In this document: positions 2,939 through 59,703 of the stretch, in pieces | How the letters are laid out: each line of letters opens with the position of its first letter | Position numbering within the stretch: position 1 is the stretch's first letter | Assembly (NCBI GenBank): GCA_035271645.1 | Contig: DATERJ010000012.1 | Location: 93,551-157,550 of the forward strand | Direction of reading: 5' to 3' | Length of the DNA: 64,000 nucleotides | DNA from: Candidatus Dojkabacteria bacterium | Lineage (GTDB): Bacteria; Patescibacteriota; Dojkabacteria; SC72 | Notes under the pieces: generated by a model | The model's database searches: none | What the model was told of the DNA's origin: nothing | The model's input: the letters and a program-made list of their open reading frames with translations, nothing else | Translations under genes and position numbers: made by a program

Positions 2939-2979
2939 ATTATATAATATTCTTTGAGAAATGTCAATACTATGGGTTG
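2939..2979 (-). promoter_or_regulatory. Consensus sigma70 promoter (TTGACA-17-TATAAT) with upstream CCAACCCATAG motif
   Basis: Minus-strand reading is CCAACCCATAGTATTGACATTTCTCAAAGAATATTATATAATG. The -35 is plus 2962-2967, the -10 is plus 2939-2944, and the spacer is exactly 17 nt. Confidence 0.6.
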
Positions 2980-2994
2980 GGACTTGTAAAGTCC

Positions 2995-3370
2995 ACATTA
3001 CAACTGATTAATTTGGTTATAATAGAGAATACAAGTGATAATAAAGTTTTAGTTTTTAAGGAAATAAGGGTGAGAGGGGCGAGTGCAAACAAATGGGTTT
3101 GTTAACCACTAATGTGGCAACTCGTTGAAGTCCCCTCCCACCAAGCTCTTATTAAGAGTCGTTATCTGCCAATAAGCAGAATAAAATTCCGATTGCAAAG
3201 TAAAGACAGGAGTCACAAGCACCTAGATGATGCAGGACTTCAGTCTATGCCTCACTTAAAAAAATGTAAAGTGGGCACAAGAGCCACAAAACCAATATGG
3301 TTTGGGTCAAAGACGTCTCACGATGTCGGAAAAGTGACACTTTTTAAGAGCTAGGATATATTATCCTACA
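2995..3370 (-). ncRNA. Candidate ~380-nt non-coding transcript A driven by a second copy of the same consensus promoter (identity unknown)
   Basis: Same promoter module at 3374-3416 (minus strand). There is no credible ORF; the 80-aa plus-strand ORF at 3112-3354 lacks an RBS and context. The plus-strand complement holds a 76-nt tRNA-like stretch ending in CCACCA at 3141. Confidence 0.25.
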
Positions 3371-3373
3371 CAC

Positions 3374-3416
3374 ATTATATAATATTCTTTGAGAAATGTC
3401 AACACACTATGGGTTA
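3374..3416 (-). promoter_or_regulatory. Consensus sigma70 promoter (TTGACA-17-TATAAT), copy 2 of the ~90-bp repeat
   Basis: Minus-strand reading is CCTTAACCCATAGTGTGTTGACATTTCTCAAAGAATATTATATAATG. The -35 is plus 3397-3402 and the -10 is plus 3374-3379. Confidence 0.6.
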
Positions 3417-3420
3417 AGGC

Positions 3421-5615: not shown

Positions 5616-6266
5616 TTAACTAAGAGGGTATGACTCTTCCCATTCGTTGTCAATATCTGTTTCTTGCTTATACTCCGGAACGACTATTACTCCTGCTCCC
5701 TTCATCCATTCTAATGCTTCATGGCTTCTTTCCTCTCTGTTTTTACCATTTACCTCGCCACGGAATGTGTCAACAGCATTTTCTGGAACAATGAGTTTTG
5801 TTTCACTTTTCCTCTCATCTAAATAGTCTTGAAGTGATAATGCTAGGTGTAAAACACAGATATCTGTGCAACAACCGACAATTACAATTTCATCTAGATT
5901 ACTTTCTATTTTTTGTAATTCTTTGCAAAATTCATCACTTTCCATAGCGTTTGTTGAGTCTTTTTTACATATAGTTGCTTCTCCACGCTCTACATATCCC
6001 TTTAACGCATCAATAGGTTCTGCTTCTTCAGTCTTATCGAGACAATGGACAGGATAATTTTTAAACTCTTCGCTATTCTCATTATGTGCATCATTAGCGT
6101 AGATAACACGACCCCCTGCTGTTAAGAATTTGTCTATGAGCTGAGTGATTGCAGGTACTATTTGACCAATATTTGGGTCTGCAAGTGCACCTTTTTCGAC
6201 AAAACCCTTATTCATATCTACTACAACTAGTAGTTTTCGATATTGGTTTAAATCTTTGTTTTTCAT
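5616..6266 (-). CDS. pncA: Nicotinamidase, isochorismatase family
   Basis: Catalytic D (VVVDMNKGF), K (ICKKDSTNA) and C (VGCCTDICV) triad in isochorismatase-like spacing. Confidence 0.75.
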   Translation of the reverse strand: MKNKDLNQYRKLLVVVDMNKGFVEKGALADPNIGQIVPAITQLIDKFLTAGGRVIYANDAHNENSEEFKNYPVHCLDKTEEAEPIDALKGYVERGEATICKKDSTNAMESDEFCKELQKIESNLDEIVIVGCCTDICVLHLALSLQDYLDERKSETKLIVPENAVDTFRGEVNGKNREERSHEALEWMKGAGVIVVPEYKQETDIDNEWEESYPLS

Positions 6267-6441
6267 TTAATGTGAATAATAATTTATTTTGATATTAACA
6301 TTATGACAAAAACAGGGCTTTTTGTCAAGGGGTTGTCTATATTTATGAAAAAAGCACCACTTGAGGTTGGTTTAAGATATTAGAATGTACATTGTTGTAC
6401 ATATATCTTACCTCTTGTGGTGCTTTTCCGTTCCTTATTGT

Positions 6442-7887
6442 TTAGCAGTATTGAACGCCTCTTTGTTCAAAGATCATTCGATTCCTCATATCTGCCAGTT
6501 TGACAGAAAGGTCAACGTAGTAGCCATGCGGATTGTCTAAACGTATGACTTCTGGATAGAGAGTTTGAAATTCTCTTGAACAATAATCCTGGCTCTCTTC
6601 GAGTGATGGGACATTGTAAACTAACTCTCCCTTTTGGAAAATTGGAACTTGAAGTTCTTTCAATATATAATTCGACAGATCTTTGTATTTCCAAGGATGA
6701 TTATGGTCTACTAACCTATACTGGTCGGTAGGAATTACCTCATCTGCTAAGGCAACTAAGTCGCCAAGAGCAAAGCGAGTATCCTTATCGTAGAAACGAT
6801 ATACCTTCTTAAACCCTGGTGTGGTAGTCTTTGTATTGTCTTCGCTCACTTTGATTGTAGGAATGATTAAACGGCCCTTTTTTATTGCAGCAAGCTTGTA
6901 GACACCTCCAAAAACGGGGGTTCTTTTTGAAGTGATGAGGTTTTCACCAACTCCAAAGGAATCGATGGGTGCTCCCTGTGCAAGCAGACTTTGGATAGTG
7001 TACTCATCCAAGGAATTGGATGCTACAATTTTGCAGTCTTGTAATCCTGCCTCATCAAGCATTTTTCTTGCTTGCTTGGCAAGGTAGGCTAAGTCCCCAC
7101 TATCCAAACGAATACCCTTCAATCTTTGACCTAGAGGTTCAAGATATTCCTTTGCTACTCTTATAGCATTAGGTACTCCACTTCTTAGTGTGTCGTATGT
7201 ATCTACGAGTAGCACAGTATTGTGTGGAAACTCTCTTGCATATGCAATGAAAGCTTCATATTCAGTATCAAATTGGGTTACGAGACTATGTGCCATAGTT
7301 CCAAGTAGTGGAACATTGTACTCTAACCCTGTTCCATAGCACGATGTGCCAGCGCACCCTGCCATGTAAGCATATTTCGCGCCGTTGATAGCTGCTGTTA
7401 GTCCTTGTGCTCTTCGAGCTCCGAACTCCATTACTGATCTTCCTGCTGCGGCATGGACAATTCTTTTTGCCTTGGTAGCAATCATTGACCCATGATTGAA
7501 GCGATTCAATATGTCTGTCTCAATGATTTTTGCTTCAATTGCTGGAGCCCATACTGTTATTACAGGCTCGTTTGGGAAAATGGGTGTACCATCTGGAATG
7601 GCATACACATCTCCAGTAAACTTGAATGTTCTTAAATATTCTAAGAACTCTTTTTTCAAGTCACTATTCTTGCTCAGGTAGTCTATTTCTTCCTTAGAGA
7701 ATGACAGGTTCTGAATGTAATCGATGATTTCATTTAAACCTGCACTTATAGAGTACCCCTTCTGTTCTGCTCCTTCTCGTCTATCGTTTCTGAAATAGAC
7801 ATCAAAGCATTGCCATAGGTTTTTGAAGCCGTGAAAGTAATCAACCTGAGCCATTGTTAGCTCATAAAAATCTACAACTTTTTTCAT
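6442..7887 (-). CDS. pncB: Nicotinate phosphoribosyltransferase
   Basis: 481 aa. N-terminal YELTMAQ… and central motifs are typical of class I NAPRTases. It completes the pncA/pncB/nadD/nadE salvage set. Confidence 0.8.
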   Translation of the reverse strand: MKKVVDFYELTMAQVDYFHGFKNLWQCFDVYFRNDRREGAEQKGYSISAGLNEIIDYIQNLSFSKEEIDYLSKNSDLKKEFLEYLRTFKFTGDVYAIPDGTPIFPNEPVITVWAPAIEAKIIETDILNRFNHGSMIATKAKRIVHAAAGRSVMEFGARRAQGLTAAINGAKYAYMAGCAGTSCYGTGLEYNVPLLGTMAHSLVTQFDTEYEAFIAYAREFPHNTVLLVDTYDTLRSGVPNAIRVAKEYLEPLGQRLKGIRLDSGDLAYLAKQARKMLDEAGLQDCKIVASNSLDEYTIQSLLAQGAPIDSFGVGENLITSKRTPVFGGVYKLAAIKKGRLIIPTIKVSEDNTKTTTPGFKKVYRFYDKDTRFALGDLVALADEVIPTDQYRLVDHNHPWKYKDLSNYILKELQVPIFQKGELVYNVPSLEESQDYCSREFQTLYPEVIRLDNPHGYYVDLSVKLADMRNRMIFEQRGVQYC

Positions 7888-39870: not shown

Positions 39871-40707
39871 TTACCTAATTTTCTTCCGAAAAAACATTAA
39901 AACGAATATTCCTCCAAGTATAAGCGCACCAATTCCTATGTCCTTATAAAAGACATTAGGATTACCACTACCTCCCGAGGGGGGGATAATGATATCAGGA
40001 GTTGGTGTCATTGGAGGATCTGTAGGTTCCTCCGTAGGCACTTCAGTTGGCTCCTGTGTTGGAGCATTCGTTGGCGTTGCCGTCGGAGATTCCGTAGGCG
40101 TCGCTGTCGGAGATTCCGTAGGCGTCGCTGTTGGAGATTCCGTAGGTGTTGCCGTCGGAGATTCTGTAGGTGTTGCCGTTGGAGGTTCCGTAGGCGTCGC
40201 TGTCGGAGGTTCCGTAGGTGTTGCCGTTGGAGATTCTGTAGGTGTTGCTGTTGGAGATTCTGTAGGCGTCGCTGTTGGAGATTCCGTAGGTGTTGCTGTT
40301 GGAGCTTCCGTAGGCGTCGCTGTCGGACATATTTCTAAATAACTCACATGACTTAGGTCATGTCGGCACGGAGACAAAACAAAATGATATGGCATCTCCT
40401 CAGGTGGGTCTAGATATATCGGTCCTGGGCAGTCGTTACCAGCCTTCCAACAATATCCAGCAAGAAGACAACCATCTTGACTGGGATTGAACCAGTATTC
40501 ACAAGGTTCCGTTGGATTATCATCCTTAATCCAACCATTACCTTCAGGACATGTCTGTTGCCCTGGTTTAGTTGGAGTTGGGGATGAAATTGTATAGATA
40601 TTACCTAATTGCTCTTTTGCAGAGACATTTGTATCTGCAGATGTAAAGATGCTAAGAGAAAGTAGGATTACAAACAATACGATAGAAATTGAAATGAATT
40701 TTTTCAT
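39871..40707 (-). CDS. Secreted Pro/Thr-repeat surface protein with C-terminal TM anchor
   Basis: Signal peptide and a Cys-rich N-terminal domain. About 12 tandem PTATPTES octapeptide repeats, then …GALILGGIFVLMFFRKKIR. Confidence 0.6.
   Translation of the reverse strand: MKKFISISIVLFVILLSLSIFTSADTNVSAKEQLGNIYTISSPTPTKPGQQTCPEGNGWIKDDNPTEPCEYWFNPSQDGCLLAGYCWKAGNDCPGPIYLDPPEEMPYHFVLSPCRHDLSHVSYLEICPTATPTEAPTATPTESPTATPTESPTATPTESPTATPTEPPTATPTEPPTATPTESPTATPTESPTATPTESPTATPTESPTATPTNAPTQEPTEVPTEEPTDPPMTPTPDIIIPPSGGSGNPNVFYKDIGIGALILGGIFVLMFFRKKIR
40036..40330. repeat. 24-bp tandem repeat array (~12 units) encoding the PTATPTES repeats
   Basis: Unit gtcggagattccgtaggcgtcgct with wobble variants. 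It explains the antisense GVAVGDSV ORF at 39989..40342. Confidence 0.85.
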
Positions 40708-40869: not shown

Positions 40870-42048
40870 CTATGGGGTGATAGTGTATCTAATTTTTGTT
40901 TCAAGAATCTTTAGGACTTTTTGATCAACATTTATCTCTTTTGTCTTAACTGCATCTAAAAGTGATTGATATGCTACTCTTTGTGAATATCTATCATCAT
41001 TAGAATATTGAATATACATTAACATATCCATACCGCTTTCTATCGATTGCCTTGCTAGATTTGAAGGAGTGTTTAAGTTCTTTAATGCTCTCATCTCCAT
41101 ATCATCAGAGATTATGAGACCTTGGTATCCTAAATCATTGACTAATCTGTTTGTAATTATTTCTTTTGAGATAGAGGCTGGTAAAGAAGCGATATTAGGA
41201 AAGAGAATATGTCCAACCATAATACCATCAATATCTTCCTCTCTGATGACTTGACTAAAAGGTCTAATGTAGTTATCCCATTGTTTTTTAGTAATATTAA
41301 CACTAGGTAGTTTCTTATGTGGGTCCGTAGTTGTTTCCCCATGTCCAGGGAAGTGTTTAAGTACAGCTAGTACATTGGTATCCTTGTACCCTCTTACGGA
41401 AGAGATGGTTTTTTGTACAGTCTCTTCCATATCTCCTCTGTATGTTCTTTGGTACATAAAGGAGGTTGTTGAATTACTAAATTCAGCAACTGGTGCTAGG
41501 TTCATGTTAATGCCTAAACCTCTTAATATCTCTCCTCTACTCTTTGCAATCTGATATGCTTCTTCTGGGCTGGATATATTCCCTTGAGGTTTGGTTAAGG
41601 TTTCATTCCATTTTAATCTTGATACTACCCCACCCTCTTGATCTATGGAGATAAAAAGGGGAATGGTGGGGTTTGTAGATTGAATTTCAGCAATGAGGTT
41701 CTTTAACTGTTTTTCATTAGTGATGTTTTTAGAGAAGAGTATTACTCCTCCAGGTTTTGTATCTATGAGAAATTGTTTATTTTGTGGGTTTAGAGATTTA
41801 TTTCCTTCAATACCAAAGATGAATAATTGTCCTACTTTTTCTTCAGGTGTCATTTGAGATAGGAGTACTTCTTCATATGGTTTTGGAGGTTCTGATTCCT
41901 CTGTTTTGTCTATTATAATTTCTTCAACATTGGGCTGTTCTATTTCAATCACTACACTCTTCTTTTGATAGTGTTGATATATGCGAAGCGATATGAGCGA
42001 GATAATTGAAAGTATTAATAGAACAAGAAGTACTGTCTTTCGTCTCAT
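40870..42048 (-). CDS. nagZ: Beta-N-acetylhexosaminidase, GH3 family (NagZ-like), membrane-anchored
   Basis: GH3 KHFPGHGETTTDPH motif and N-terminal TM helix. Confidence 0.75.
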   Translation of the reverse strand: MRRKTVLLVLLILSIISLISLRIYQHYQKKSVVIEIEQPNVEEIIIDKTEESEPPKPYEEVLLSQMTPEEKVGQLFIFGIEGNKSLNPQNKQFLIDTKPGGVILFSKNITNEKQLKNLIAEIQSTNPTIPLFISIDQEGGVVSRLKWNETLTKPQGNISSPEEAYQIAKSRGEILRGLGINMNLAPVAEFSNSTTSFMYQRTYRGDMEETVQKTISSVRGYKDTNVLAVLKHFPGHGETTTDPHKKLPSVNITKKQWDNYIRPFSQVIREEDIDGIMVGHILFPNIASLPASISKEIITNRLVNDLGYQGLIISDDMEMRALKNLNTPSNLARQSIESGMDMLMYIQYSNDDRYSQRVAYQSLLDAVKTKEINVDQKVLKILETKIRYTITP

Positions 42049-42092
42049 GGCTAATTATATCATTACGGTTAAGATATATGGTATAATATGCT

Positions 42093-42797
42093 ATGGGTTG
42101 TGAAAACATTGAAAATCACAATTTAGGTAATGAGCCAAGAGATTTAGATGATATGAGAGGTGAATATGATGTAGCTATCATTGTTTTAAGTGGTCCTGAT
42201 GAAGATGAAAAGTTTAGGGAGTATGCAGCAACACTAGCTCATTTTGAAGCAGGGCTAATGGGTAAGAAAGCTGTTATCATTACTGCTGGTAGTCGTTCTC
42301 ATTTGATAAAAGACAGGCTTGTTAATGAAAGAGATATTCCTGAAGAGGATATAGTTGTTGAGAACCATTCCTATGATACTTCTAGCAATGCTATTTTTAC
42401 TAGTGAGATGTTAATGAGATTAGGATTTGAGGAGCAAGGGGATGTTCTGTTGATAACAAATGGATATCATTTACCTAGGTCAGAGATGTTGTTTAGAAGA
42501 TATTGGGGACCTAGTTTTAAGCCTATCAATGCTGAGAGGTTTCTTTATGAGAATCGTCCTGATAGTTATTCTTTACCAGGTGATACAGAGCCTTATCCAT
42601 ATGGTTTAGATGCAAAGAATCATGAGAATGAACCTAGAACCAGAATCCTTAAGTTTATAGATAGTGTTGTATTCAAAACTATTTATAAATATCCTGCAGG
42701 AGAGTTACTTATGAGAAGTTTAGCTAAAAATAGGTTGCAACAGAGAAAGAAATCACGTAGTCAAATTAATCAAGAAAACCTTCACTTTTCTTCTTAA
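42093..42797 (+). CDS. DUF218 (YdcF/ElyC/SanA-like) protein
   Basis: LLITNGYHLPRSEMLF matches the DUF218 signature. The track ATG lies inside the GCTATGGGTTG motif; the true start may be the ATG at 42153 (MRGEYDV…). Confidence 0.55.
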   Translation: MGCENIENHNLGNEPRDLDDMRGEYDVAIIVLSGPDEDEKFREYAATLAHFEAGLMGKKAVIITAGSRSHLIKDRLVNERDIPEEDIVVENHSYDTSSNAIFTSEMLMRLGFEEQGDVLLITNGYHLPRSEMLFRRYWGPSFKPINAERFLYENRPDSYSLPGDTEPYPYGLDAKNHENEPRTRILKFIDSVVFKTIYKYPAGELLMRSLAKNRLQQRKKSRSQINQENLHFSS

Positions 42798-45192: not shown

Positions 45193-46134
45193 TTGTTAAG
45201 AAATGTGTTAATGATAGATTTCTCAAAAACACTTCAGTCTTTTTTAAAACAAGCTAATACTTCAGATTTGAAGACTAGTTTGTATCCTAAAGTTTACAAT
45301 GACTTAACAGTAAAAGTCTCTTTTGGACAAGGATCTTCGGCTAGAATTCCTTGGATTGCTTTTCTTACTGATGGAATCCAGGTTAGCAATGGTTTTTATC
45401 CTGTTTATCTCTATTACAAAGAATACAATACACTTATTCTTTCTTATGGTATAAGCGAAACTAATGAATTTAGTTCTACATGGCCACCTGAAGTAATTGG
45501 ACTAGCTCCAACGATTTTTGATTTTTTTAGTCATAAAGTAGCTCGATATGGAAGTTCATATGTTTACAAAGCGTATAATGTTGAAATTACTAATAACGAG
45601 GTTTTCTTGTTAGATACACATGATGGAAAGAAAAAAAATAGTGATGAGATAAATAATGATTTGCTAACTATTTTAAATAAATATAAAAAAGTGTTTGATG
45701 AGGGTGAGCATACTGAAACAGTAGAAAATATAGGTATAGGACTCTTTTACATGGAAAAACAACTCGAGGACTTCCTTATTCAGAATTGGGATAATACAGA
45801 GTTTGGAGAGAAATATGAATTGATCATAGAGGAAGGTGAGATTGTTAGTCAACAATACAGAACAGATGTCGGGCCAATAGATATACTTGCTAAAGATAAG
45901 GTTAACGGTAATTATGTAGTAATAGAATTGAAAAAAGATCAAACCAATGATAACACCATTGGGCAACTAACTCGATATATGGGTTGGGTAAAAGAAAAAT
46001 TAGGGGATAACAATGTTAAAGGTATTATTATCTCAGGAGGATATAATAAGCAACTAGATTATTCTGCAAAGATGGTACCTAATGTTGAGGTATATTCTTA
46101 TAAAATAGATTTTAGAGTTAAGAAGGAGAATTAA
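45193..46134 (+). CDS. Modification-dependent (type IV-like) restriction endonuclease candidate: McrB-N/DUF3578-like reader fused to a NucS/DUF91-like PD-(D/E)xK nuclease
   Basis: N-terminal half has VSFGQGSSARIPWIAF (PWI motif). C-terminal half has GPIDILAKD…YVVIELKKD (D…E-x-K nuclease core). Confidence 0.5.
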   Translation: MLRNVLMIDFSKTLQSFLKQANTSDLKTSLYPKVYNDLTVKVSFGQGSSARIPWIAFLTDGIQVSNGFYPVYLYYKEYNTLILSYGISETNEFSSTWPPEVIGLAPTIFDFFSHKVARYGSSYVYKAYNVEITNNEVFLLDTHDGKKKNSDEINNDLLTILNKYKKVFDEGEHTETVENIGIGLFYMEKQLEDFLIQNWDNTEFGEKYELIIEEGEIVSQQYRTDVGPIDILAKDKVNGNYVVIELKKDQTNDNTIGQLTRYMGWVKEKLGDNNVKGIIISGGYNKQLDYSAKMVPNVEVYSYKIDFRVKKEN

Positions 46135-46148: not shown

Positions 46149-47585
46149 CTACTGCAACCTCTCAAATTTACCATCTTCTAATTGTCTATAATATCCTGAT
46201 CCCTCTGGTCCATATAGACTCCATGAGTTAATAGGAACTTGATATGCTTGACCTGTACTTGGTGAAGATAATGTCTCATATCCTCTCATACCCTCTACCC
46301 ATTTCTCACTAGATTCAGTTATTAAACCTTTATGATAAGCACTACTTTGAACAGTAATAGAAGCTCTTGTATTCTCAGTAGGTTCAACTATTGGTAGTAA
46401 TGTATTCTTCCTTATCATACTACTATCAACAAAATCAAAACTATCTTGCATCTTCTGTAAGGTATCTTTTACATTATCCCAATTCTCAGCTAATGTCATC
46501 TGTCCAAATCCATAAGCTGATGCATATTTAGTCTCACCTGCAGAGTATGGAGGCTGATATATTCCTACAGTTATTTTACCTAGAATAGGTATACCTTGCA
46601 TCTTAGCACTAAGGTTAAACTCCTGTACACTATACCCTAATACCTGAGAAGGTAATACTGTTTCATCTGTTAATGTAAGATCTGTTATTTCCTTAACCTC
46701 TGCGAACGTCTCTTCTACCCAAAATTTAGGTGTATAGTCACCTTTTAATTCTGTTGTGTACATGTAGCTAAGTAATGTTCTTTGATCAGGTCCTACTAAT
46801 TGAATAAAACCTTCTTTCTCTTCTGAGATGGTGTAACCGGTAGCCTTATCTAACTGGAAGTATTTTCCTTTGTATTTCTTAAAACCTTCTGGAGTCTCTT
46901 CCTTTACTTCTTCTTTGGGTTTTGCTGTTAAAATTTCATCTGTAAGTACTTTTGTTCTTGCAAAACACCCAGTAATTTCCTTTAAGAAACCTTCTCTCTC
47001 TTCAAATATCTCTGCAGGTGCCCAATATGCTTTAAATGTAACAAAATCTTTTGTTTTAGAAATATGCATCTTCCCCTTAATATCATATTCGTTGATTTGA
47101 GCTATGACATCTGCATAAATCTCGTCCTCTAACTCTTCTATCTCTTGAATCTCCTGCATCTCAAATGTCCCACCTCCTTCTTCAGTAGTTTCTTTTAAGA
47201 TTTTAGAGAATGTATTTAGGAAATCCTCTTTTGTTAATTCTGGCTGTAATTTAGCAGTATATATGAGTACTGCAGTAGTATTTGTCTCATCTTCCATTAT
47301 TGAGACAGTACCGCTTTCAACCGCATAATACCATCCATTTGGAACACCAATACTAAAGGCGTTCTCAGGATACTCTATCCTCTTCAACGAACAACTAGGG
47401 TTGTCGTTTTCTACAGTCTCAGCATAATACTCATCCCTACCAATACCTAAGTCCTTTAGAATTGTTTCTAAAGATCCTGTTAGGTAGAGAGCACCTAAGA
47501 GTGCAACTACGAGGATTATTATGATTGAAATAATTATAGATTTCTTGTGTTTTGTAAAGAAATCTGTAGACTGGGCTTCTTTCAT
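46149..47585 (-). CDS. Hypothetical N-terminally anchored extracytoplasmic protein
   Basis: TM helix at aa 18-40, then a 430-aa acidic domain with no known motif. Confidence 0.35.
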   Translation of the reverse strand: MKEAQSTDFFTKHKKSIIISIIIILVVALLGALYLTGSLETILKDLGIGRDEYYAETVENDNPSCSLKRIEYPENAFSIGVPNGWYYAVESGTVSIMEDETNTTAVLIYTAKLQPELTKEDFLNTFSKILKETTEEGGGTFEMQEIQEIEELEDEIYADVIAQINEYDIKGKMHISKTKDFVTFKAYWAPAEIFEEREGFLKEITGCFARTKVLTDEILTAKPKEEVKEETPEGFKKYKGKYFQLDKATGYTISEEKEGFIQLVGPDQRTLLSYMYTTELKGDYTPKFWVEETFAEVKEITDLTLTDETVLPSQVLGYSVQEFNLSAKMQGIPILGKITVGIYQPPYSAGETKYASAYGFGQMTLAENWDNVKDTLQKMQDSFDFVDSSMIRKNTLLPIVEPTENTRASITVQSSAYHKGLITESSEKWVEGMRGYETLSSPSTGQAYQVPINSWSLYGPEGSGYYRQLEDGKFERLQ

Positions 47586-47694
47586 ATTATTTAAATATAA
47601 AAAATTAAGTCCTTAGATAAATAATAGCAGATATGTGAGTGGTGTCAAATAGATTGCATAGGTTACAAATATATGAATTCTAAAGCCATACAGT

Positions 47695-49347
47695 TTATCC
47701 CTTAGCCACTAAAACAAATCTTTCTATTGTATCTCTACTCATATTCAATGATTTGGGAAGTTGTTCCTCTATTCTATCAACCCACCTACCTTCTAGAAGA
47801 TGTATGTTCTTAATTTCACTTACACTCTCCCCAACACTCATATACAGTTCATCTAAAGTATCCTTACCCTCTTTAGCAGAATGTAAGATTGTATCTTGCA
47901 TAGACTTGCTAACAGAATACTTACCAAAATCTCCAACAAATATATTTGAAAAATATTCTTTTAGGTATGAGGTAGTTATAGAGGTAGTAGGAAATATACC
48001 ATCTTTATTTCTTATCCCATTCAATACCACTTTAGGTTTAACAACCCTATCAAACCCTGCAGAGAGTCTAAGATAATCCAAAGTATTACTATCAGCACCT
48101 GTTGTTTTTAAATATTCCAACACCTCATCAACCTTGCTCTCAAATGAAAGTAGTTCACCTAAGTTACTGTTGCTATCTCTCACTTGTGAGTACTTAAAAA
48201 TATCACTAATCTTTTTAATAATATTATTAGGAATATTACTGTCTCCTACAATCTCTACTATATCATCATCTGATAGGATCCTATCAACATCTTCAGTTGT
48301 ATACTCCTTCTTAACCTCATACTCTAGATTGTAATCATTCTTAAGAAGATACTTTATCTCATTGTACAAAACTACTCCTAATATCGGTTCATCTTTAGTA
48401 AATTCTCCAATCCACATTCTAAGATTTCGCCCTATCCTGTTCTGCTCTTTTGTACTTTTTGTACCCATTCTCTCTTTAAGAGCATTAGCCATCTCTCTAG
48501 CTATCTCTGTATGTACTAACTTCTCAGGCTCATATTGGCCTGGAAAAGTAATGACTTCATTGGTTGATAGTACAAATTTGTATTGTAATGGCTTCTTATC
48601 TCCATCACGACTTTTTTGTTCCACTTCTATTTTGTAGAATGAGGAAGTTAATGATTTATCCTCAAGAAGTAATTTTAAAGCCAGAACACTATCAAATCCA
48701 TGTTTTTCAACAGAATGACCATCGTATGATATTCTTTCTGGATTATCTAAATATATCTGGAAGTACTCTTGTATCTTTGACATATCACCTTTCACATTGG
48801 ATAGGTTAAAACCATACTCTAATTTATTAGAACGGTATACTGGTATTTCTAATCCATTCTTGTCTAAGACAGCAGTACCATCTTCATATCTATATATCTT
48901 CTTCCTTTTTCCATTTGGTCCATTCTCATATTGTAAATATCTAGCTTCTTCCTCATTACTATTTATATGCGAAAGGTCTGGTTTGAGTATTCCGTATGAT
49001 AAATCTCTTCTTCTTACAAATATCATATCTCCATTAAATTTTATACCTTTTGTATGTCTTAAGTATTCTTCTGTAACGATAGTAATACCTTTAGATCTGT
49101 ATACATGAGTATTTACAAAAGCATTACTAACCTCATTACTATCTATACCTTCAATTCTGTTAATATCTAAATTCTTAGTTTCGTATGTCTGAACTCCAAT
49201 TACTAAAGGAAAAGGAAGGTTCTCCTTTATCAGTCGATTGAACTGATCAACTTCTACAGAATTAGAACCAGGTGTTATTAATGATACTGGGGTTGTATCT
49301 AGTTCTGTTTCTTCAGTTTGTAATGTTGGATCATCATCTATACCCAT
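47695..49347 (-). CDS. Hypothetical 550-aa protein (orphan)
   Basis: Long ORF with ordinary coding composition and no recognisable motif. The GCTATGGGTTG promoter module lies ~50 nt upstream. Confidence 0.35.
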   Translation of the reverse strand: MGIDDDPTLQTEETELDTTPVSLITPGSNSVEVDQFNRLIKENLPFPLVIGVQTYETKNLDINRIEGIDSNEVSNAFVNTHVYRSKGITIVTEEYLRHTKGIKFNGDMIFVRRRDLSYGILKPDLSHINSNEEEARYLQYENGPNGKRKKIYRYEDGTAVLDKNGLEIPVYRSNKLEYGFNLSNVKGDMSKIQEYFQIYLDNPERISYDGHSVEKHGFDSVLALKLLLEDKSLTSSFYKIEVEQKSRDGDKKPLQYKFVLSTNEVITFPGQYEPEKLVHTEIAREMANALKERMGTKSTKEQNRIGRNLRMWIGEFTKDEPILGVVLYNEIKYLLKNDYNLEYEVKKEYTTEDVDRILSDDDIVEIVGDSNIPNNIIKKISDIFKYSQVRDSNSNLGELLSFESKVDEVLEYLKTTGADSNTLDYLRLSAGFDRVVKPKVVLNGIRNKDGIFPTTSITTSYLKEYFSNIFVGDFGKYSVSKSMQDTILHSAKEGKDTLDELYMSVGESVSEIKNIHLLEGRWVDRIEEQLPKSLNMSRDTIERFVLVAKG

Positions 49348-49866
49348 ATTTCATATTAACAAAATTAGATGGATATTAGTAGGTAGAAATGATATAATGC
49401 TATGGGTTGAGATCGTTGAAAATGGAGGTGTAGTATTACAAAAAAGATAGTTATTTGGATTGTTGGGAATCAGTACATTGGGGCAAAAGATACATCTGGG
49501 TTAATTTATATTAATTTAACTCAAAATGATTTAATAATTCCCCAATCTGGACATATTGCATATGTTCTTGAAAAGAAGATCATCGGACTTCCTCCGAGGG
49601 TGGATAATGTTCGTTTTGTTGTAGATAACTTTGTTCTTCTTATGTCAGGAAGAAAAGATTTGGTATCTATTGATACTGTAGAACAATTACTATCAAACTC
49701 AACCTAATTGGTAGGTATCTTATATTTTTAACAAGAAGATGCCTACCTTTTCTTTATTCCACCTAGATAGCATATTGATTTACAAAAAAAAGGAGCACCT
49801 CCGGTATAATCACTCAAATGAGTAGATATTGTTTTACCATCAACGGTGCTCGTCTTGCATTAATAG

Positions 49867-50247
49867 TTATTCTGGTGCAATGGTTGCATCCACTTCCTCG
49901 TTTAGTATTTGTACTAATTCGGTTATGGGGTCTATGTGTAGATGAGAGCCAACTGGAAGTGGTTTAACTTCATGGGTTTCACCATACTTCTGAACAATTG
50001 CATTTAGCCAAGTTTCAAAGTTCTCCTTGGTTACTCCCTCTGCTGAAATATCTGCCAACCAAGGCATTTGTTCCAAAAGAAATGGTTGGCACTCTTTAGA
50101 TGCTCTTGGTAATTGGTGGGTAAATAGGTTGTCATTTGTCATAAAGTTGAGTATTGCATAAACACCCTCCATATGACTAGGGGCCAGTAGATATCCAGTG
50201 GTGACTGACAAAATATCCCCAATGTGAAAAGCTTTAGATTTAGACAT
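49867..50247 (-). CDS. Hypothetical 126-aa protein (orphan)
   Basis: Preceded by duplicated promoter/leader module copy A. Confidence 0.35.
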   Translation of the reverse strand: MSKSKAFHIGDILSVTTGYLLAPSHMEGVYAILNFMTNDNLFTHQLPRASKECQPFLLEQMPWLADISAEGVTKENFETWLNAIVQKYGETHEVKPLPVGSHLHIDPITELVQILNEEVDATIAPE

Positions 50248-50284
50248 ATTTTTATTCTCCTTGTTTCTTTGTTGTTTTTAACAT

Positions 50285-50585
50285 ATCCGAATGGATAGCT
50301 TATTAACTATTAGATTAGTAATAAGTAATAGGCTACCCACTCAAGATTAAAAAAGAGAGAACCCCAATAAACTATTAAAGTGCAAGTATTTATATTATAT
50401 CATAAAATGAAGAGAAATGCTATGGGTTGTGAGTTGGTTGACATAATTATGAACTTAGAACTGTAAGAGATTTTTTATCTTGAAAATGTGCTTAAGGAAA
50501 GAATGTTGTTTTATAAAGAAGAAAAGCCTGAAGGTTTATGAGATAGATGGATAGTATACACTACACGGGAATCCCTACTTCAGGC
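50285..50585. repeat. ~300-bp promoter/leader/3'-hairpin module, copy A
   Basis: Shares with copy B ATCCGAATGGATAGC…GCTACCCACTC (a hairpin-forming leader), TTAAAGTGCAAGT, the ATTATATCATAAAA -10, CTATGGGTTG and a near-identical 165-nt tail ending in the AGCCTGAAG…CTTCAGGCT stem. Confidence 0.8.
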
Positions 50586-50603
50586 TATTCTTGCACTTAT
50601 TTA

Positions 50604-51215
50604 TTAATCAAATGTGGAAGTTACCTCCAAGACATACTTTTTGTCAGCATTTTTTACGATTGCTGCTGTAGTTAGTGCTCCCCCTCCTATTGCAAGGATA
50701 ACTAATAAGATTATTAGGAATCCTGCAGCAGAGTCCTTACTACTACGTCTTTTATTACTTTTACTACCCCCTAAGAAGAAATCTGTAACACTTTGAAATG
50801 CTCCAGGTGTATGTTTAGCTGCAGACCATATATTTCGTGCCTGAGCGTAAGTATTCCAGCCAGCTACAGCAATATCTCCAAATTGTCTTTTTTTCCAAGC
50901 ATTAATAATAGAGTGAACCCAAATCACAGTTCCACTTGTAAGTAATGCAGGGATTAAAATGAGATATCCTAGGTTGAACATCACCGAGGCTTGATCGGGA
51001 GTTAAATATTCTAATGCTGTAGCACCAATTGTCAGAATAGTCAGATATACCCAAGTAAATCCAACTGCTGACATAACAACACTGGCCCAAACAAGAACTC
51101 TTGGCCAGCCTTTGATAATCTTTACTTCGGTCCAAAATCGACCAGCACTCCAAGCATTCCACCACGAAATGCCGAAGTTCAACAACAGACATAACAACAA
51201 AATTAATGGGTTCAT
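50604..51215 (-). CDS. Hypothetical 5-TM membrane protein (Trp-rich)
   Basis: 203 aa with hydrophobic helices. It is flanked on both sides by the duplicated module. Confidence 0.4.
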   Translation of the reverse strand: MNPLILLLCLLLNFGISWWNAWSAGRFWTEVKIIKGWPRVLVWASVVMSAVGFTWVYLTILTIGATALEYLTPDQASVMFNLGYLILIPALLTSGTVIWVHSIINAWKKRQFGDIAVAGWNTYAQARNIWSAAKHTPGAFQSVTDFFLGGSKSNKRRSSKDSAAGFLIILLVILAIGGGALTTAAIVKNADKKYVLEVTSTFD

Positions 51216-51262
51216 TATTTATTCTTCTCCTTTACATGGTAATTTACTGCAATTTGCAGGCA

Positions 51263-51569
51263 ATCCGAATGGATAGCTTCTGAGGTATTAGGAGATTACT
51301 TAATACCGTAGAAGCTACCCACTCTTTTTGAGAGTAAAATGAGAAGTAACCTTCCATCGATTGTTAAAGTGCAAGTGGTTACATTATATCATAAAACGAG
51401 AAACAACACTATAGGTTGTAGGTCAATTGGTTGACATAATTATGAACTTGGAACGGTCAGAGATTTTTTTATCTTGAAAATGTGCTTAAGGAAAGAATGT
51501 TGTTTTATAAAGAAGAAAAGCCTGAAGGTTTATGAGATAGATGGGTAGTATACACTACACGGGAATCCC
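51263..51569. repeat. ~300-bp promoter/leader/3'-hairpin module, copy B
   Basis: See copy A. The distal 165 nt are ~97% identical, and the leader hairpin keeps its base-pairing through compensatory substitutions. Confidence 0.8.
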
Positions 51570-51601
51570 TACTTCAGGCTCTGTCTTTAACAAACTGATA
51601 T

Positions 51602-52030
51602 TTACTCTTTCCTGTGGCTAATATGGCCATAGATACGATATGGATAACCATTTCCGCGGTTGACACCAGCAATTATATGAACCAATTGAAGAGCAGGATT
51701 GTTATAATACCTTCTCAAATAATCTTCATATAATGCAGGGGTTCCTTCTGGGAAATTCTTACTTGCTTCCTGAAAAGACTCTTGAGATTTCTTGTAATCC
51801 CATTCATACAGTTGGTCAGAATAAACGTAATTGACACCAACCACAATATCGCTCCCGAATGAGGAAATCAATTCATTGCCAGGGGCTAGAAAGATGGTTT
51901 GCTCGTTGTTGTGAAAGCGACCGTCTGAGTAATGGGGATTCAAGAGATTCCAAGTTATAGGCGTGTTTTTATCTGTTTCAACATGAATAATTTGTCGAGT
52001 CATTTTCTTTTCCTTTCTAGTTGAGAACAA
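51602..52030 (-). CDS. Hypothetical 142-aa protein (orphan)
   Basis: Located immediately downstream (on the minus strand) of tRNA-His and the GCTATGGGTTG/TATAAT module. Confidence 0.35.
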   Translation of the reverse strand: MFSTRKEKKMTRQIIHVETDKNTPITWNLLNPHYSDGRFHNNEQTIFLAPGNELISSFGSDIVVGVNYVYSDQLYEWDYKKSQESFQEASKNFPEGTPALYEDYLRRYYNNPALQLVHIIAGVNRGNGYPYRIYGHISHRKE

Positions 52031-52106
52031 ACGGATCGAGTAAACTTTTTAGTTGTTAAATAACTCTATAATTATATCAAAGAACAGGGGAAATTGCTAT
52101 GGGTTG

Positions 52107-52184
52107 TGGGGTGGAAGATGGGACTTGAACCCACAACCTCTGGTGCCACAAACCAGCGCTCTAACCAGTTGAGCTACATCCACC
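52107..52184 (-). tRNA. tRNA-His (anticodon GTG), G-1 and CCA encoded
   Basis: Reverse complement G-GTGGATGTAGCTCAACTGGTTAGAGCGCTGGTTTGTGGCACCAGAGGTTGTGGGTTCAAGTCCCATCTTCCACC-C-CCA. The extra 5' G pairs with C73, as is typical of tRNA-His. Confidence 0.85.
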
Positions 52185-52310: not shown

Positions 52311-52772
52311 ATGAAAGACAACAAACTAATCATCTCTAAAGATATGTTTGCTAAACTTAAAGAAGAACTCAGGAAGCTCCTAGAGACTAGGAAGGAACTA
52401 AACAAAAACTTGGAACATGCTAGACAGAGTGATGTTAGCGAAGATACTGATTCCATTGCTGCTGTTACAGATGAGATAAGTAAGATTAATATGAAGGTTG
52501 AGGATATTGAGGAAACTCTCGAGCACGCAACTGTTATGGAGAAGAAAGGAAAAAAGACATGTGTTGATATAGGGTCTGTTGTAAAAGTAAAAACTAATGG
52601 TAAGACTCAGGAGTTTACAGTAGTTTCTGATGTAGAAGCTAATCCCTTAGAAAGAAAGATTTCAGATAAATCTCCATTAGGTAAACAATTGATGAATGGT
52701 AAAAAGGGGAAGAAAGTTGTAGTTAAAACAGAAGATGGAGATGTTGAATATGAGATAGTCGAGGTTTCTTAG
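52311..52772 (+). CDS. greA: Transcription elongation factor GreA
   Basis: N-terminal coiled-coil plus C-terminal FKBP-like ISDKSPLGKQLMNGKKGKKVVVKTEDGDVEYEIVEV. Confidence 0.8.
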   Translation: MKDNKLIISKDMFAKLKEELRKLLETRKELNKNLEHARQSDVSEDTDSIAAVTDEISKINMKVEDIEETLEHATVMEKKGKKTCVDIGSVVKVKTNGKTQEFTVVSDVEANPLERKISDKSPLGKQLMNGKKGKKVVVKTEDGDVEYEIVEVS

Positions 52773-54082
52773 GCTATATATTCATCTAAATCCTCAATCT
52801 TTACTCTTTCCTGTTTCATTGTATCTCTATCTCTTACAGTAACAGTATTGTTTTCTAATGTCTCATAATCAATTGTGATACAGTAAGGTGTCCCAATTTC
52901 ATCTTGATATCTGTATCTCTTACCAATATTTCCTCTACCATCCCATACAACTTTGTAAGAATCAGAGAGCAAGTCAAAGACCTCTCTTGCTTTCTTAACA
53001 ATATCTTCCTTGTTTCCAACAAGTGGAAATATTGCAGCTCTGTATGCAGCAATATCTTTGTGTATCTTTAATACTGTCCTAATATTTCCTCCACCCAAAT
53101 CTTCTTCTTCGTATGCATCAAGGAGAAGGTAGAGGAATGTTCTAGTAACACCACCAGATGTTTCTACAATGTTTGGAATATATTTTTCATTTGTAATTGG
53201 GTCTGTATATGTTAAATCTGTTCCTGAGAACTTCATATGTTGTGTTAAATCATAGTCACCTCTCCAATGTATACCTTCATTCTCAGCCCATCCCCAAGGA
53301 GTTAAATATTCAATATCGTATGCATCTTTAGCATAGAAGACTAACTTGTCTTTTGGATGCTGATAGAATCTAAGATTGTCATGTTTTCTGTAAAGTTCTT
53401 TGTAGAACTTCATTCTTTCTTCTTTCCAATATTCAAAATATTTCCCCATATCATTAGGATGCACAAAGAATTGTAAATCCCACTGTTCAAACTCTCTCAC
53501 TCTAAAGGTAAATCTTCCAGGAGTAATCTCATTTCTAAATGCTTTACCTATCTGTGCAATACCAAAAGGAATCTGTTGCCTTGTACTATCTACAACATTC
53601 TTAAAGTTTAGATATATATTTTGGCATGCTTCACCTCTTAGATATGCTTTTACTTTAGAACCTTCAATTACACCAACTTCTGTTGCAAAGAGAAGATTAT
53701 ATGACCTGGGTTCTGTAAAATCTTTCTTACCACAGTTTGGACACTTCTCTTCAATATCTTCAGGTCTAAATCTCTGATGACAACCCTTACATTCAACTAC
53801 CTCATCACCAAAATTTTCTACATGACCTGATGCTTCCCAAACCTTAGGATGTGTAATGATTGTTCCATCAATTCCAACAACATTCTCCCTTTTATCAACC
53901 ATATTCTTCCACCAGTACCTCTTAAGGTTGTTCAACATCTCAACACCTACAGGACCGTAGTCATAGAAGCCCCCTATACCTCCATATATCTCTGAATTTG
54001 GGTATATTATCCCTCTTCTCTTACAAAGGGCAACTATATTATCAAGTGTATTTTTATCTTCCATGGATTTATTATATATCAA
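52769..54082 (-). CDS. glyQS: Glycine--tRNA ligase, dimeric alpha2 type
   Basis: N-terminal …CKRRGIIYPNSEIYGGIGGFYDYGPVG… and class II aaRS motifs; 437 aa. Confidence 0.85.
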   Translation of the reverse strand: MIYNKSMEDKNTLDNIVALCKRRGIIYPNSEIYGGIGGFYDYGPVGVEMLNNLKRYWWKNMVDKRENVVGIDGTIITHPKVWEASGHVENFGDEVVECKGCHQRFRPEDIEEKCPNCGKKDFTEPRSYNLLFATEVGVIEGSKVKAYLRGEACQNIYLNFKNVVDSTRQQIPFGIAQIGKAFRNEITPGRFTFRVREFEQWDLQFFVHPNDMGKYFEYWKEERMKFYKELYRKHDNLRFYQHPKDKLVFYAKDAYDIEYLTPWGWAENEGIHWRGDYDLTQHMKFSGTDLTYTDPITNEKYIPNIVETSGGVTRTFLYLLLDAYEEEDLGGGNIRTVLKIHKDIAAYRAAIFPLVGNKEDIVKKAREVFDLLSDSYKVVWDGRGNIGKRYRYQDEIGTPYCITIDYETLENNTVTVRDRDTMKQERVKIEDLDEYIA

Positions 54083-58552: not shown

Positions 58553-59047
58553 CTATTGGTTCGGTTTTAATTCAACAAGTTTACACTCATTGAAATGGTA
58601 AATATCATAACAACCAAGACGGGTTGGCCCACTTTCGTATTCACATATTTGTTGTAAATCTCTGGTACATACGAAAGAGGCTATCTCACCAGCTTTTAAT
58701 GCCATAACCCTTAAGTCGTTGGCTGTAATAATATTGATATCTCCTTTTGATACAAAATCAACAGGAGGGTTTACCTCTAAGACTTCACCGCGTATGATTT
58801 GGTTATTGTCTTGAAAGAAATCCCCTATTGTTCCATGCCTCATAGAACCAATTAGTTCTGTTGGGTAGTTTTCTGGTTCTTCTGTGAGTTTCATGGTAAC
58901 GAGATGAAGTTTTGTATCACGAACTTGGTTTGCTTGGGTGGTTTGCGGTACTGGACCACAACCACTAAGAGCAATCAGTAAAGATAGGGCAAGAATAAGA
59001 GATATTCTTTTAAACATTTTGATACTCCTTTTTAATAATCTCTCCAA
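58553..59047 (-). CDS. Hypothetical lipoprotein
   Basis: Signal peptide with LSGC lipobox; 164 aa. Confidence 0.45.
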   Translation of the reverse strand: MERLLKRSIKMFKRISLILALSLLIALSGCGPVPQTTQANQVRDTKLHLVTMKLTEEPENYPTELIGSMRHGTIGDFFQDNNQIIRGEVLEVNPPVDFVSKGDINIITANDLRVMALKAGEIASFVCTRDLQQICEYESGPTRLGCYDIYHFNECKLVELKPNQ

Positions 59048-59580
59048 ATTTTCCTACATTCCTCTAAAACACCCCACGCTTTTTCAACAAACTTAGGATT
59101 AAAACGAGGTTTTCTTCGCAGTAATTCTGGTACAATCATTTTTGAACCAGATAACGGGTATTCAAATCTTTTCATATAGTGTAGACAACTAAGGATTTCC
59201 ATCCATTCTACTTTACTAGTTGGTAACCCATGGTCCAGAACTTTTAAATCTTTTCGTACTTGTATTACGATTGCTTTATACTCTTCAGTTAAATTGATGT
59301 TATCAAGATCAGCACCGTTCTTTATTTTCTCATCAAGAGATTGTAGGTCCCAGTCAAGACGAGTTGAGTAAGGCCCTGACCAATTCCATGAAAAGCTGAA
59401 ATCTTTAAATTCTCCAACAATAAACATTTTCAGGAAATAGCACATTTTTTGTGCCATGTCATGAACAACTGCGAACCTACGATTTCCCTTATCTGTAGGA
59501 TAAGCGGAATAGTCTTCTTCGTAAAATAATGCGAAAAGTGTCAAGAACTTCTTTTCATTAAAATCAAGTGTTGTATCCAT
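59032..59580 (-). CDS. Hypothetical 182-aa protein
   Basis: Its start overlaps the downstream lipoprotein gene. A promoter module with TTATAAT and GCACTTTAACAA lies upstream. Confidence 0.35.
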   Translation of the reverse strand: MDTTLDFNEKKFLTLFALFYEEDYSAYPTDKGNRRFAVVHDMAQKMCYFLKMFIVGEFKDFSFSWNWSGPYSTRLDWDLQSLDEKIKNGADLDNINLTEEYKAIVIQVRKDLKVLDHGLPTSKVEWMEILSCLHYMKRFEYPLSGSKMIVPELLRRKPRFNPKFVEKAWGVLEECRKIWRDY

Positions 59581-59703
59581 CTTTTTTCTCCTTTTTTATA
59601 TATTTTTTGTGATTACTTCTAACCAATAGATTGTTAAAGTGCGACAAGGTATTATAACAATCTGAACGGGACAAAACAAGGCTATGGGATTGGTTGTGTG
59701 GGA

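Follow-up and report, generated by a model that had tools for sequence, protein, structure and literature searches.

The block of small, mostly minus-strand genes next to tRNA-His (positions 46149 to 52106) in a 64,000-nucleotide (nt) stretch of a Candidatus Dojkabacteria contig (DATERJ010000012.1, positions 93,551 to 157,550; the whole stretch is referred to here as the window) probably represents a set of accessory-gene cassettes that are insulated from one another, gated in translation by their leader RNAs, and shuffled by means of shared regulatory parts, as in the promoter-early stem-loop (PeSL) cassettes of phages. The main result is the leader, a structured RNA element that precedes unrelated genes in diverse members of the candidate phyla radiation (CPR).

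In the proposed mechanism, a hypervariable accessory region would lie downstream of tRNA-His on the chromosome of this dojkabacterium from anaerobic digesters. Each cassette consists of a strong promoter of the extended −10 type with a CCCATAG motif ahead of it, a 140- to 160-nt leader, a gene, and a conserved, predicted intrinsic terminator with a long stem. The leader combines a single-stranded BoxA-like element at the 5′ terminus, a run of pyrimidines complementary to the Shine-Dalgarno (SD) sequence, a 22-bp hairpin, and, in many copies, a small 3′ hairpin. When closed, this fold would keep the cassette gene translationally silent, and expression would depend on the factor that acts on the hairpin or the BoxA element; candidate actors are the NusB/NusE complex (as in suhB and lambda N), a hairpin-binding protein, or RNase III. 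The shared regulatory parts would provide the homology for cassette gain, loss, and movement, making the region a cellular counterpart of the PeSL cassettes of T4-type phages. Anatomy, conservation, covariation, complementarity to the SD sequence, and presence/absence polymorphism are direct observations on the sequences, whereas start sites of transcription, gating of translation, participation of Nus factors, and the mode of recombination are deduced.

Setting and anatomy of the block

The window has a GC content of 35% and carries GlyRS, GreA, glmS with its ribozyme, and four tRNAs. Judged by GlyRS, its nearest public genomes are metagenome-assembled genomes of Candidatus Dojkabacteria, which makes the source an uncultured member of CPR (Patescibacteria). 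One of the tRNA genes, tRNA-His (GTG; CCA encoded; 52107..52183, minus strand), is the anchor of the variable region, and the same junction is kept in three other loci (L094, L096, and L104; L numbers denote the loci compared). Starting from tRNA-His, the window contains o142; a tail, promoter, and leader followed by o203; a second tail, promoter, and leader followed by o126; a terminator; hid90 in the reverse orientation; o550; o478; and a nuclease gene, also reversed. Exact copies of the 203-amino-acid (aa) o203 protein are found on contigs of several anaerobic-digester metagenomes.

An earlier reading of this DNA from the sequence alone (the sequence-only reading) described the intergenic regions upstream of o126 and o203 as near-duplicates, and the comparison agrees: gapped alignment and BLAST match them over 318 nt at 82% identity, with a 154-nt core at 96.8%. 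This block (51427-51580, minus strand) begins at tail A and is 97% identical to 50434-50586. In a repeat search of the window, the same duplicate appears as pieces of 116 nt (99%), 48 nt (90%), and 56 nt (80%). The short elements listed in that reading are likewise all found, namely CTATGGGTTG, the extended −10 TGATATAAT, and TTAAAGTGCAAGT, together with the leader hairpin GAGTGGGTAGC...GCTATCCATTC, which carries compensatory differences between the two copies, and the 9-bp stem AGCCTGAAG/CTTCAGGCT, after which the minus strand has a T-run.

What does not hold is the view of the module as one duplicated unit, since the tails are 97% identical but the leaders only 68%. In coding (minus-strand) orientation, a module comprises four parts, the upstream gene's long-stem terminator, a promoter, a leader RNA, and the next gene, so that the "duplicated modules" are the terminator of gene n plus the promoter and leader of gene n + 1. 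Contigs L001 to L005, from other digester metagenomes that were assembled independently, carry the identical two-copy arrangement, which excludes an assembly duplication, one of the explanations that the sequence-only reading had named as fatal to its proposal.

A leader RNA family shared by CPR lineages

Only two full copies of the leader are found in the 64-kb window. Leader A (51216..51376, minus strand; 89 bits) is the 5′ untranslated region (5′ UTR) of o203 and comprises the BoxA-like element GCACTTTAACA (51362-51372), a pyrimidine anti-SD stretch, the hairpin (51268-51324), and the SD sequence. Leader B (50248..50387, minus strand; 88 bits), the 5′ UTR of o126, has the same parts, with the BoxA-like element GCACTTTAATA at 50373-50383 and the hairpin at 50290-50342. 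A pattern scan of metagenomes for the two hairpin arms, GAGTGGRTAGC-N18-48-GCTATCCATT, retrieved 49 stretches from sludge, sediment, groundwater, and other samples, two of which are chance matches in coding sequence; the leader itself is counted at about 45 loci of CPR bacteria (Dojkabacteria and WWE3). The consensus (alignments A1 and A4) reads cTTGCACTTTAAnAAnTTGCGGAAAg, a variable stretch that is often CCTCCT or CTCCTT, and then GAGTGGGTAGC, a covarying inner stem and loop, and GCTATCCATTCGGaTAGCC. The 3′ part often contains a small hairpin, which is followed by the SD sequence and by a start codon located 12 to 62 nt after the main hairpin.

Covariation was assessed on 32 distinct (nonredundant) leader sequences. 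RNAalifold predicts a 22-bp hairpin in which 11 of the 22 pairs are changed on both sides, i.e., are compensatory. Hairpin cells are paired in 94.6% of cases, compared with 33 to 45% when the partner columns are slid; cells changed on both sides number 81, versus 28 ± 4 in shuffled alignments, and none of 500 shuffles reaches any of the five measures used. Two G-U pairs are kept, one in all 32 copies and the other in 22 (the rest being A-U), and with the calibrated model the sense copies score 80 to 100 bits and the antisense ones 27 to 50 bits. The fold is therefore a feature of the RNA of the mRNA strand. The basal 11 bp are invariant across the copies, which is partly due to the search pattern that demanded them; even so, they are common to loci that differ widely in the remaining leader sequence, in GC content (29 to 49%), and in host class.

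The leader loci have cellular genes on their flanks, which encode RpoC, EF-G/EF-Tu, ribosomal protein S7, transporters, and thymidylate synthase. In L123, RpoC shares 82% identity with proteins assigned by name to candidate division WWE3; the window, L094, L096, and L104 belong to Dojkabacteria. Searches of the window leader and tail against Rfam 15 yield no match at an E value of ≤10 or at the gathering threshold, and 20 other leader loci have none at an E value of ≤1; literature searches on the leader sequences, CPR RNA motifs, and DUF7736 returned nothing relevant. As judged from these alignments, the leader is a structured RNA family that is shared by at least two CPR classes (Dojkabacteria and WWE3) and absent from Rfam. 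The sequence-only reading noticed the hairpin and missed this widespread family, with its BoxA-like element and SD-sequestering helix.

The 32 distinct open reading frames (ORFs) that follow the leader encode unrelated small proteins of 48 to 400 aa, many of them with transmembrane (TM) helices. About 10 match PHROGs, namely phrog_2169 ("membrane protein, moron"), phrog_15963/DUF7736, phrog_37671, phrog_26039, phrog_9822, and phrog_30702, and one matches the Pfam family Tad4, an anti-Thoeris protein. In at least five loci, which represent different lineages and include L097, L104, L124, and L141, the gene behind the leader encodes a DUF7736 protein. The cassette genes are likely to be of phage origin.

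In several loci outside Dojkabacteria (L099, L101, L110, L118, L122, L128, L132, L136, and L142), a terminator-like hairpin with a T-run ends 4 to 26 nt before the BoxA-like motif. A promoter of its own would hardly fit into this space, so that the terminator either overlaps with the promoter or is in fact a leader hairpin, in a boxB-boxA-like order.

BoxA-like element and predicted SD sequestration

Of the 11 positions of GCACTTTAAnA, the motif at the 5′ end of the leader, 10 agree with GYTCTTTAANA, the consensus for BoxA given by Baniulyte et al. (2017, PMC5725501). Two leaders, L139 (GTTCTTTAATA) and L103 (GCTCTTTAAAA), fit the consensus fully, and the BoxA consensus is seen to drift between phyla. 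The leader motif occurs without deviation four times in the window (40757, 50373, 51362, and 59632), each time within a 5′ leader and in coding orientation. In the dojkabacterial copies, it is found 8 to 10 nt downstream of the extended −10, i.e., close to the predicted start site, and it is unpaired in most minimum-energy folds. Neither the window nor the other loci examined contain a 16S rRNA gene or an rRNA operon, and the CPR motif is regarded here as a putative BoxA.

In 22 of the 32 leaders, minimum-energy folding pairs the SD sequence with pyrimidines immediately 5′ of the hairpin, and in these folds the SD/anti-SD pairing closes a helix around the leader hairpin. The longest perfect complement of the SD region within this 24-nt stretch has a mean length of 5.19 nt, versus 4.01 nt in shuffled stretches (maximum, 4.44; 200 shuffles), and 21 of the 32 leaders have a complement of at least 5 nt, against 8.4 expected. 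Such an arrangement suggests that the leader may gate translation of the gene downstream.

The closest parallels are found among mRNAs with a BoxA in the 5′ UTR. The suhB gene is subject to Nus-factor-dependent translational repression through such a BoxA, and lambda N is repressed likewise, via BoxA with nutL and an intervening structured region that is sensitive to RNase III (PMC5725501). Here, too, a BoxA-like element lies near the mRNA 5′ end, with structure and an SD sequence within ~150 nt, an arrangement that represses translation in the known cases (PMC5725501). The differences are that the CPR motif is one position off GYTCTTTAANA, that there is no boxB or N protein, and that binding of NusB/NusE is putative; moreover, the hairpin base is invariant in sequence, which is not known from suhB or lambda N, and the targets are variable accessory genes instead of a Nus factor or phage regulator. 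BoxA-type elements located directly downstream of a strong promoter are also found in the antitermination leaders of rRNA operons (boxB-boxA-boxC) and upstream of CRISPR arrays (Stringer et al. 2020, PMC7665894). However, those elements shield long untranslated transcripts from Rho, whereas each leader described here precedes a short translated gene with its own intrinsic terminator. By analogy with these systems, translation control linked either to Nus factors and BoxA or to a hairpin-binding protein or RNase III is favored, with low confidence.

Predicted terminators

Each tail begins ~20 nt past the upstream stop codon and consists of a long hairpin followed by the U-run UUUUCUUCUUU, which is present on the minus strand only. 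In tail A (51508..51580, minus strand), the hairpin is irregular and has the basal stem AGCCTGAAG/CTTCAGGCT; it is read as the intrinsic terminator of o142. Tail B (50514..50586, minus strand), which is 97% identical to tail A, would serve o203 in the same way. A third predicted terminator, that of o126 (49784..49851, minus strand), has the form GAGCACC...GGTGCTC followed by T8, and an 83% identical copy is found in L096. The tails are therefore best described as predicted intrinsic terminators of the upstream genes plus a spacer.

The two halves of the module have had different histories. Tails A and B are 80% identical to the equivalent tail of L094 and 66% identical to that of L096, compared with 97% to each other, so the pair that flanks o203 must have been recently duplicated or homogenized. 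In contrast, leaders A and B, at 68% identity, are no closer to each other than are leaders of different genomes (62 to 79%) and must therefore be old paralogues.

The sequence-only reading had also considered that the tail might be a small RNA or a micropeptide mRNA, and it had pointed out a 22-codon plus-strand ORF there. This ORF does exist in both copies but is disrupted in the tails of L094 and L096; its identity between the copies is due solely to that of the DNA. As the ORF is not conserved, the tail is not taken for a small RNA or micropeptide gene. A miniature transposable element was likewise rejected, as inspection revealed no terminal inverted repeats or target duplications and the position relative to the genes is fixed.

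Promoters and the CCCATAG motif

A C(A/T)ACC(C/T)ATAG motif is found ~90 nt past the tail hairpin, and TGATATAAT lies 20 nt further on. Promoter A (51383..51418, minus strand) combines the motif CAACCTATAGTG (51407-51418) with the extended −10 TGATATAAT (51383-51391), and promoter B (50394..50429, minus strand) combines CAACCCATAGCA (50418-50429) with TGATATAAT (50394-50402). The promoter of the first cassette (52071..52106, minus strand) has its CAACCCATAGCA motif (52095-52106) directly abutting the 3′ end of tRNA-His and the extended −10 TGATATAAT (52071-52079) 20 nt downstream of the motif; the same tRNA-adjacent promoter is found in L096 and L104. Thus, two of the shorter promoter versions pointed out in the sequence-only reading, beside tRNA-His and upstream of 59032..59580, are indeed present. 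At the third, before o550, only the motif is confirmed: CAACCCATAGCA (49398..49409, minus strand), located between hid90 and o550, adjoins a −10 element that is on the plus strand.

Motifs of the AACCCATAG type, all on the minus strand, occur in the window at 2977, 3414, ~8020, 40880, 42098, 49407, 50427, 51416, 52104, and 59690. Each immediately precedes the −35 position of a predicted promoter and, where a TTGACA −35 element exists, abuts it. Some of these promoters serve housekeeping genes, e.g., the gene at 42048, and the motif also precedes leader promoters elsewhere in CPR, e.g., in L097, L104, L108, L133, and L140. The CCCATAG motif is hence a general promoter feature that is not specific to the block, and it may represent a CPR-specific promoter-upstream element or a transcription factor-binding site. 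Two of its copies, 42089-42100 and 49398-49409, are in addition directly adjacent to a TG-n-TATAAT on the plus strand. The first of these lies between divergent candidate leaderless mRNAs (42079-42095, plus strand, and 42048-42062, minus strand): the ATG (42093) of a 234-aa plus-strand ORF is inside the complement of the motif, 6 nt past TGGTATAAT, and a 392-aa glycosidase-like ORF on the minus strand has its ATG 6 nt past TGATATAAT.

Two occurrences of the motif belong to tandem units of ~430 nt each (2560-3420, minus strand), each with CCCATAG and a near-consensus TTGACA-17-TATAAT promoter. The units share 47 nt at 96% identity and contain a hairpin, GTAGGATAAT..ATCCTA, followed by GCTCTTAAAAA, which resembles the BoxA of lambda nut. 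They contain no ORF and have no Rfam match even at an E value of ≤5, and they may be unrecognized noncoding RNAs. A CCCATAG promoter and a BoxA-like GCACTTTAAAA in the leader are also found in the gene at 39871-40707 (minus strand). Its product is either secreted or anchored, and a part rich in P and T is encoded by at least 11 copies of a 24-nt tandem repeat (39971-40354).

Turnover of cassettes in related genomes

Useful relatives were found via homologues of o550. In L094, tRNA-His is followed by a leader hairpin with a 104-aa phrog_2169 membrane protein, a reversed deacetylase gene, and, further on, a C-terminal remnant of o142 with its tail; this tail is joined directly to the hid90 terminator, and after it come hid90 (reversed), o550, two copies of o478, and, further on, a NucS-type nuclease and HsdR. 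In L096, the order is a promoter with a 78-aa ORF, a reversed 237-aa ORF, hid90 (reversed), a frameshifted o550, an o182 homologue, a reversed deacetylase gene, a promoter and leader with an o164 homologue and its tail, and an o478 homologue. L104 has a promoter and leader with DUF7736 directly after tRNA-His, then a 142-aa ORF and an ATPase of the FtsK/SpoIIIE family (5964-6815, plus strand; E = 1e-38). The last of these, two genes downstream of a leader-bearing cassette, hints that genes of mobile elements use the same tRNA-His hotspot.

The gene content next to tRNA-His thus differs among the four Dojkabacteria genomes, as expected of the variable accessory region that had been proposed there. 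The junction between tail and hid90 terminator in L094 is the place where the window carries two cassettes, and none of L094, L096, and L104 has o203 in the corresponding region. The homologues of o182 and o164 are inside the tRNA-His region in L096, whereas in the window both genes are 7 kb away, with a CCCATAG promoter and a BoxA-like element but no hairpin. From these layouts it follows that the small genes between tRNA-His and hid90/o550/o478 turn over while the regulatory parts recur. The reuse of promoter, leader, and terminator before unrelated genes, also suggested in the sequence-only reading, is illustrated by the 104-aa membrane protein of L094 and the o164 homologue of L096. The o550, o478, and hid90 genes, on the other hand, are a conserved clade-specific core and not cassettes. 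The boundaries of gene gain, loss, or replacement fall at the cassettes, as seen in the L094 junction and in the DUF7736 gene that directly follows tRNA-His in L104. Both this L094 junction without the two cassettes and the near-identical tails that bracket o203 are consistent with shuffling through shared parts. Synteny around GlyRS, by comparison, is uninformative on presence or absence of the block, as it reached only distant relatives (GreA 30 to 52% identical), which have tRNA-Glu and a second GreA instead of the tRNA-His block.

Several points weigh against the cassette model as a whole. Ten of the 32 leaders have no clear anti-SD pairing, and the shuffles used to judge SD complementarity preserve base composition only. 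The BoxA-like motif deviates from the consensus at one position. The invariance of the basal stem is in part an ascertainment effect of the search pattern, and model R1, applied to 1.18 Mb of other CPR sequence, recovered no further divergent leader copies, which limits the breadth that can be ascribed to the family. All contigs of the same species share one layout, so that recombination at the tails is deduced from patterns of identity. Start sites, termination, and processing are read from the sequence.

Comparison with known systems and alternative explanations

The nearest known architecture is that of the PeSLs of T4-type phages (Arbiol et al. 2010, PMC2839356; Comeau et al. 2014, PMC4122927). 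In both cases, small terminator/promoter composites are located in hyperplastic regions, between unrelated genes mostly of unknown function, and genes are gained, lost, or replaced at such sites between close relatives. As in PeSLs, a strong sigma-70-like promoter and a stem-loop terminator are repeated between unrelated genes. The differences are the location on a cellular CPR chromosome, the additional long conserved leader RNA, and the absence of sequence similarity to PeSLs; furthermore, recombination or mini-circles belong to the characteristics of PeSLs, whereas recombination here would have to be read from sequence identity. Because the cassettes are located on a cellular chromosome and the leader pattern has no match in 2.9 million viral contigs of IMG/VR, they are treated as an analogue of PeSLs and not as members of that class.

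This phage-like architecture is also among the arguments for regarding the block as a prophage remnant or an integrative element at tRNA-His, with the small genes, promoters, and leaders left over from the early region of a CPR phage or from a mobile element. The block adjoins a tRNA, o203 and o126 belong to phage protein families, other leader-linked genes match PHROGs and Tad4, and L104 has its FtsK/SpoIIIE ATPase two genes past the cassette. However, no integrase or phage structural genes are seen in the neighborhood; the sequence-only reading had also reported no integrase, and none is seen among the neighboring ORFs, which are not every ORF of the window. A search for att-type repeats finds the 3′ end of the tRNA repeated only as the 12- to 14-nt promoter motif, and GC content and GC content at third codon positions (GC3) are the same as in the rest of the window. 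Given also the absence of the leader from viral contigs, the housekeeping genes that flank the leader loci, and the CCCATAG motif that drives housekeeping genes such as the one at 42048, a prophage origin of the block appears unlikely.

Somewhat less probable still is that the leader is a metabolite riboswitch or the mRNA leader of a type I toxin, in which the SD sequence is occluded by the 5′ UTR and small toxic membrane proteins are controlled by antisense RNA. Sequestration of the SD sequence and the many small TM proteins encoded downstream agree with this explanation, but the downstream genes share no common pathway, and some of their products are soluble proteins of 120 to 250 aa. The conserved fold is one long helix with no multihelix junction or binding pocket, and a BoxA-like element is foreign to both classes. 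Nor was an antisense promoter or RNA seen, although no search aimed at one was made.

There is very little reason to view the block as an integron-like array in which a recombinase moves cassettes through attC-like sites formed by the tail hairpins. It resembles integrons in that unrelated single genes, which vary between relatives, are placed between imperfect palindromes, with near-identical tails on both sides of o203, but no integrase or IntI-like ORF is seen near the array (within the same set of neighboring ORFs), and on direct reading the tails lack the RYYYAAC/GTTRRRY core sites of attC. In addition, the palindromes are terminator-like, with a U-run after each tail on the coding strand, and every cassette has its own promoter, unlike those of integrons. 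Plain local duplication followed by drift, with accidental similarity and a generic stabilizing stem-loop in the leader, would fit the presence of only two full copies in 64 kb but is already contradicted by the comparative data, i.e., by a covarying leader in ~32 diverged loci that include another CPR class, by leaders A and B being as diverged from each other as from those of other genomes, and by the same parts preceding different genes in relatives, and hardly merits consideration.

The cassette model thus accounts best for the block. A wider claim, which the data render possible but for which we would not yet argue, is that the leader is a CPR-wide class of cis-regulatory RNA that gates phage-derived, exchanged accessory genes and that, together with the terminators and a CPR-specific CCCATAG element, forms an integrase-free exchange system for gene cassettes in the minimal genomes of these episymbionts; such a leader may sense the state of the Nus factors or phage infection.

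Significance

Almost nothing is known about gene regulation in CPR (Patescibacteria). The finding gains interest because the leader, backed by covariation in at least two CPR classes, is a structured RNA family across CPR lineages that is absent from both Rfam and the literature searched. It may also represent a role of BoxA beyond rRNA, CRISPR arrays, and the genes for Nus factors, and the CCCATAG motif is a promoter-upstream element that recurs in several CPR lineages. The locus itself appears to be a hotspot for the exchange of small genes of phage families (DUF7736 here, Tad4-like elsewhere), each of which moves as a unit ready for expression. Should the leader indeed gate translation, it could be used to locate accessory genes of CPR bacteria, possibly including genes for interaction with phages, and would be a usable genetic part for cocultured CPR bacteria.

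Genes of the block and its neighborhood

The five minus-strand genes had been described as orphans lacking recognizable domains, a description that does not survive comparison with sequence databases.

o142 (51602..52003, minus strand) encodes 133 aa from the ATG at 52003, the start chosen by gene callers and probably the true one; starting from the TTG at 52030, the product would have 142 aa. It belongs to a large, unannotated family of small proteins with 409 cluster representatives at an E value of ≤1e-3 and has no Pfam, PHROG, or PDB match. o203 (50604..51215, minus strand) is a multi-TM protein of the phrog_37671 family, with jumbo-phage homologues that are 38 to 42% identical. o126 (49867..50247, minus strand) is a member of DUF7736/phrog_15963, with homologues in mycobacteriophages and Caulobacter jumbo phages.

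The gap at 49410-49866, where the sequence-only reading had suspected a decayed gene or ORFs of less than 60 aa, contains instead a conserved plus-strand gene, hid90 (49435-49707), that was overlooked by both the ORF listing and the gene callers. It encodes ~90 aa from an ATT start located 5 nt after GGAGGTG, has its own extended −10 (49390-49398), and is followed by a hairpin terminator. It is identical in five assemblies, and orthologues divergent from the o550 gene are found in L094, with a TTG start, and in L096. No match to it is found in Pfam, PHROG, or PADLOC.

o550 (47695..49347, minus strand) is specific to Dojkabacteria, with homologues that are 77% (L094) and 69% (L096) identical. 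Its structural model (predicted local distance difference test [pLDDT] score of 68) has no significant fold match in PDB; there is no Pfam match, and a scan of viral contigs revealed no relatives. o478 (46149..47585, minus strand) is likewise a protein of the Dojkabacteria lineage with known homologues there, including two paralogues in L094. Its AlphaFold model (pLDDT, 73) consists of an N-terminal helix, which would serve as a membrane anchor, and two PsbP/Mog1/DcrB-like domains (Foldseek E = 3e-7). The gene has its own promoter, TTGACA-16-TATTAT, at 47621-47648.

The sequence-only reading had also raised the possibility of a defense or accessory island. The accessory character is borne out by the comparison of genomes, but a defense role is not supported: there are no direct matches, and it is hinted at only by the neighboring nuclease and by a weak DarG-like match of o182, the two being the only PADLOC-related signals. 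Four of the five block proteins have no PADLOC match, and that of o550 is marginal (PDC-S05; E = 0.005). The nuclease gene (45193-46134, plus strand) encodes a 313-aa protein with an MrcB_N-like N terminus and a NucS_C/PD-(D/E)xK nuclease domain (PDC-S02; E = 8e-44), and a related nuclease adjoins the type I HsdR in L094. o182 matches the model of the C-terminal part of the DarG antitoxin (E = 2e-5) and is located in a short related cassette (59032..59700, minus strand) that comprises a CCCATAG-type promoter, TGTTATAAT, and the BoxA-like GCACTTTAACA (59632-59642), with no hairpin before o182. The gene overlaps o164, which encodes a lipoprotein-like product; the two genes together occupy 58553-59580 (minus strand).

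On the other side of tRNA-His, comparison of the window (52311-54082) with L011, the nearest Dojkabacteria genome in GTDB, gives an identity of 95% for GlyRS but of only 52% for GreA next to it, beyond which synteny is lost. This contrast reflects either unusually uneven divergence or a transferred GlyRS.

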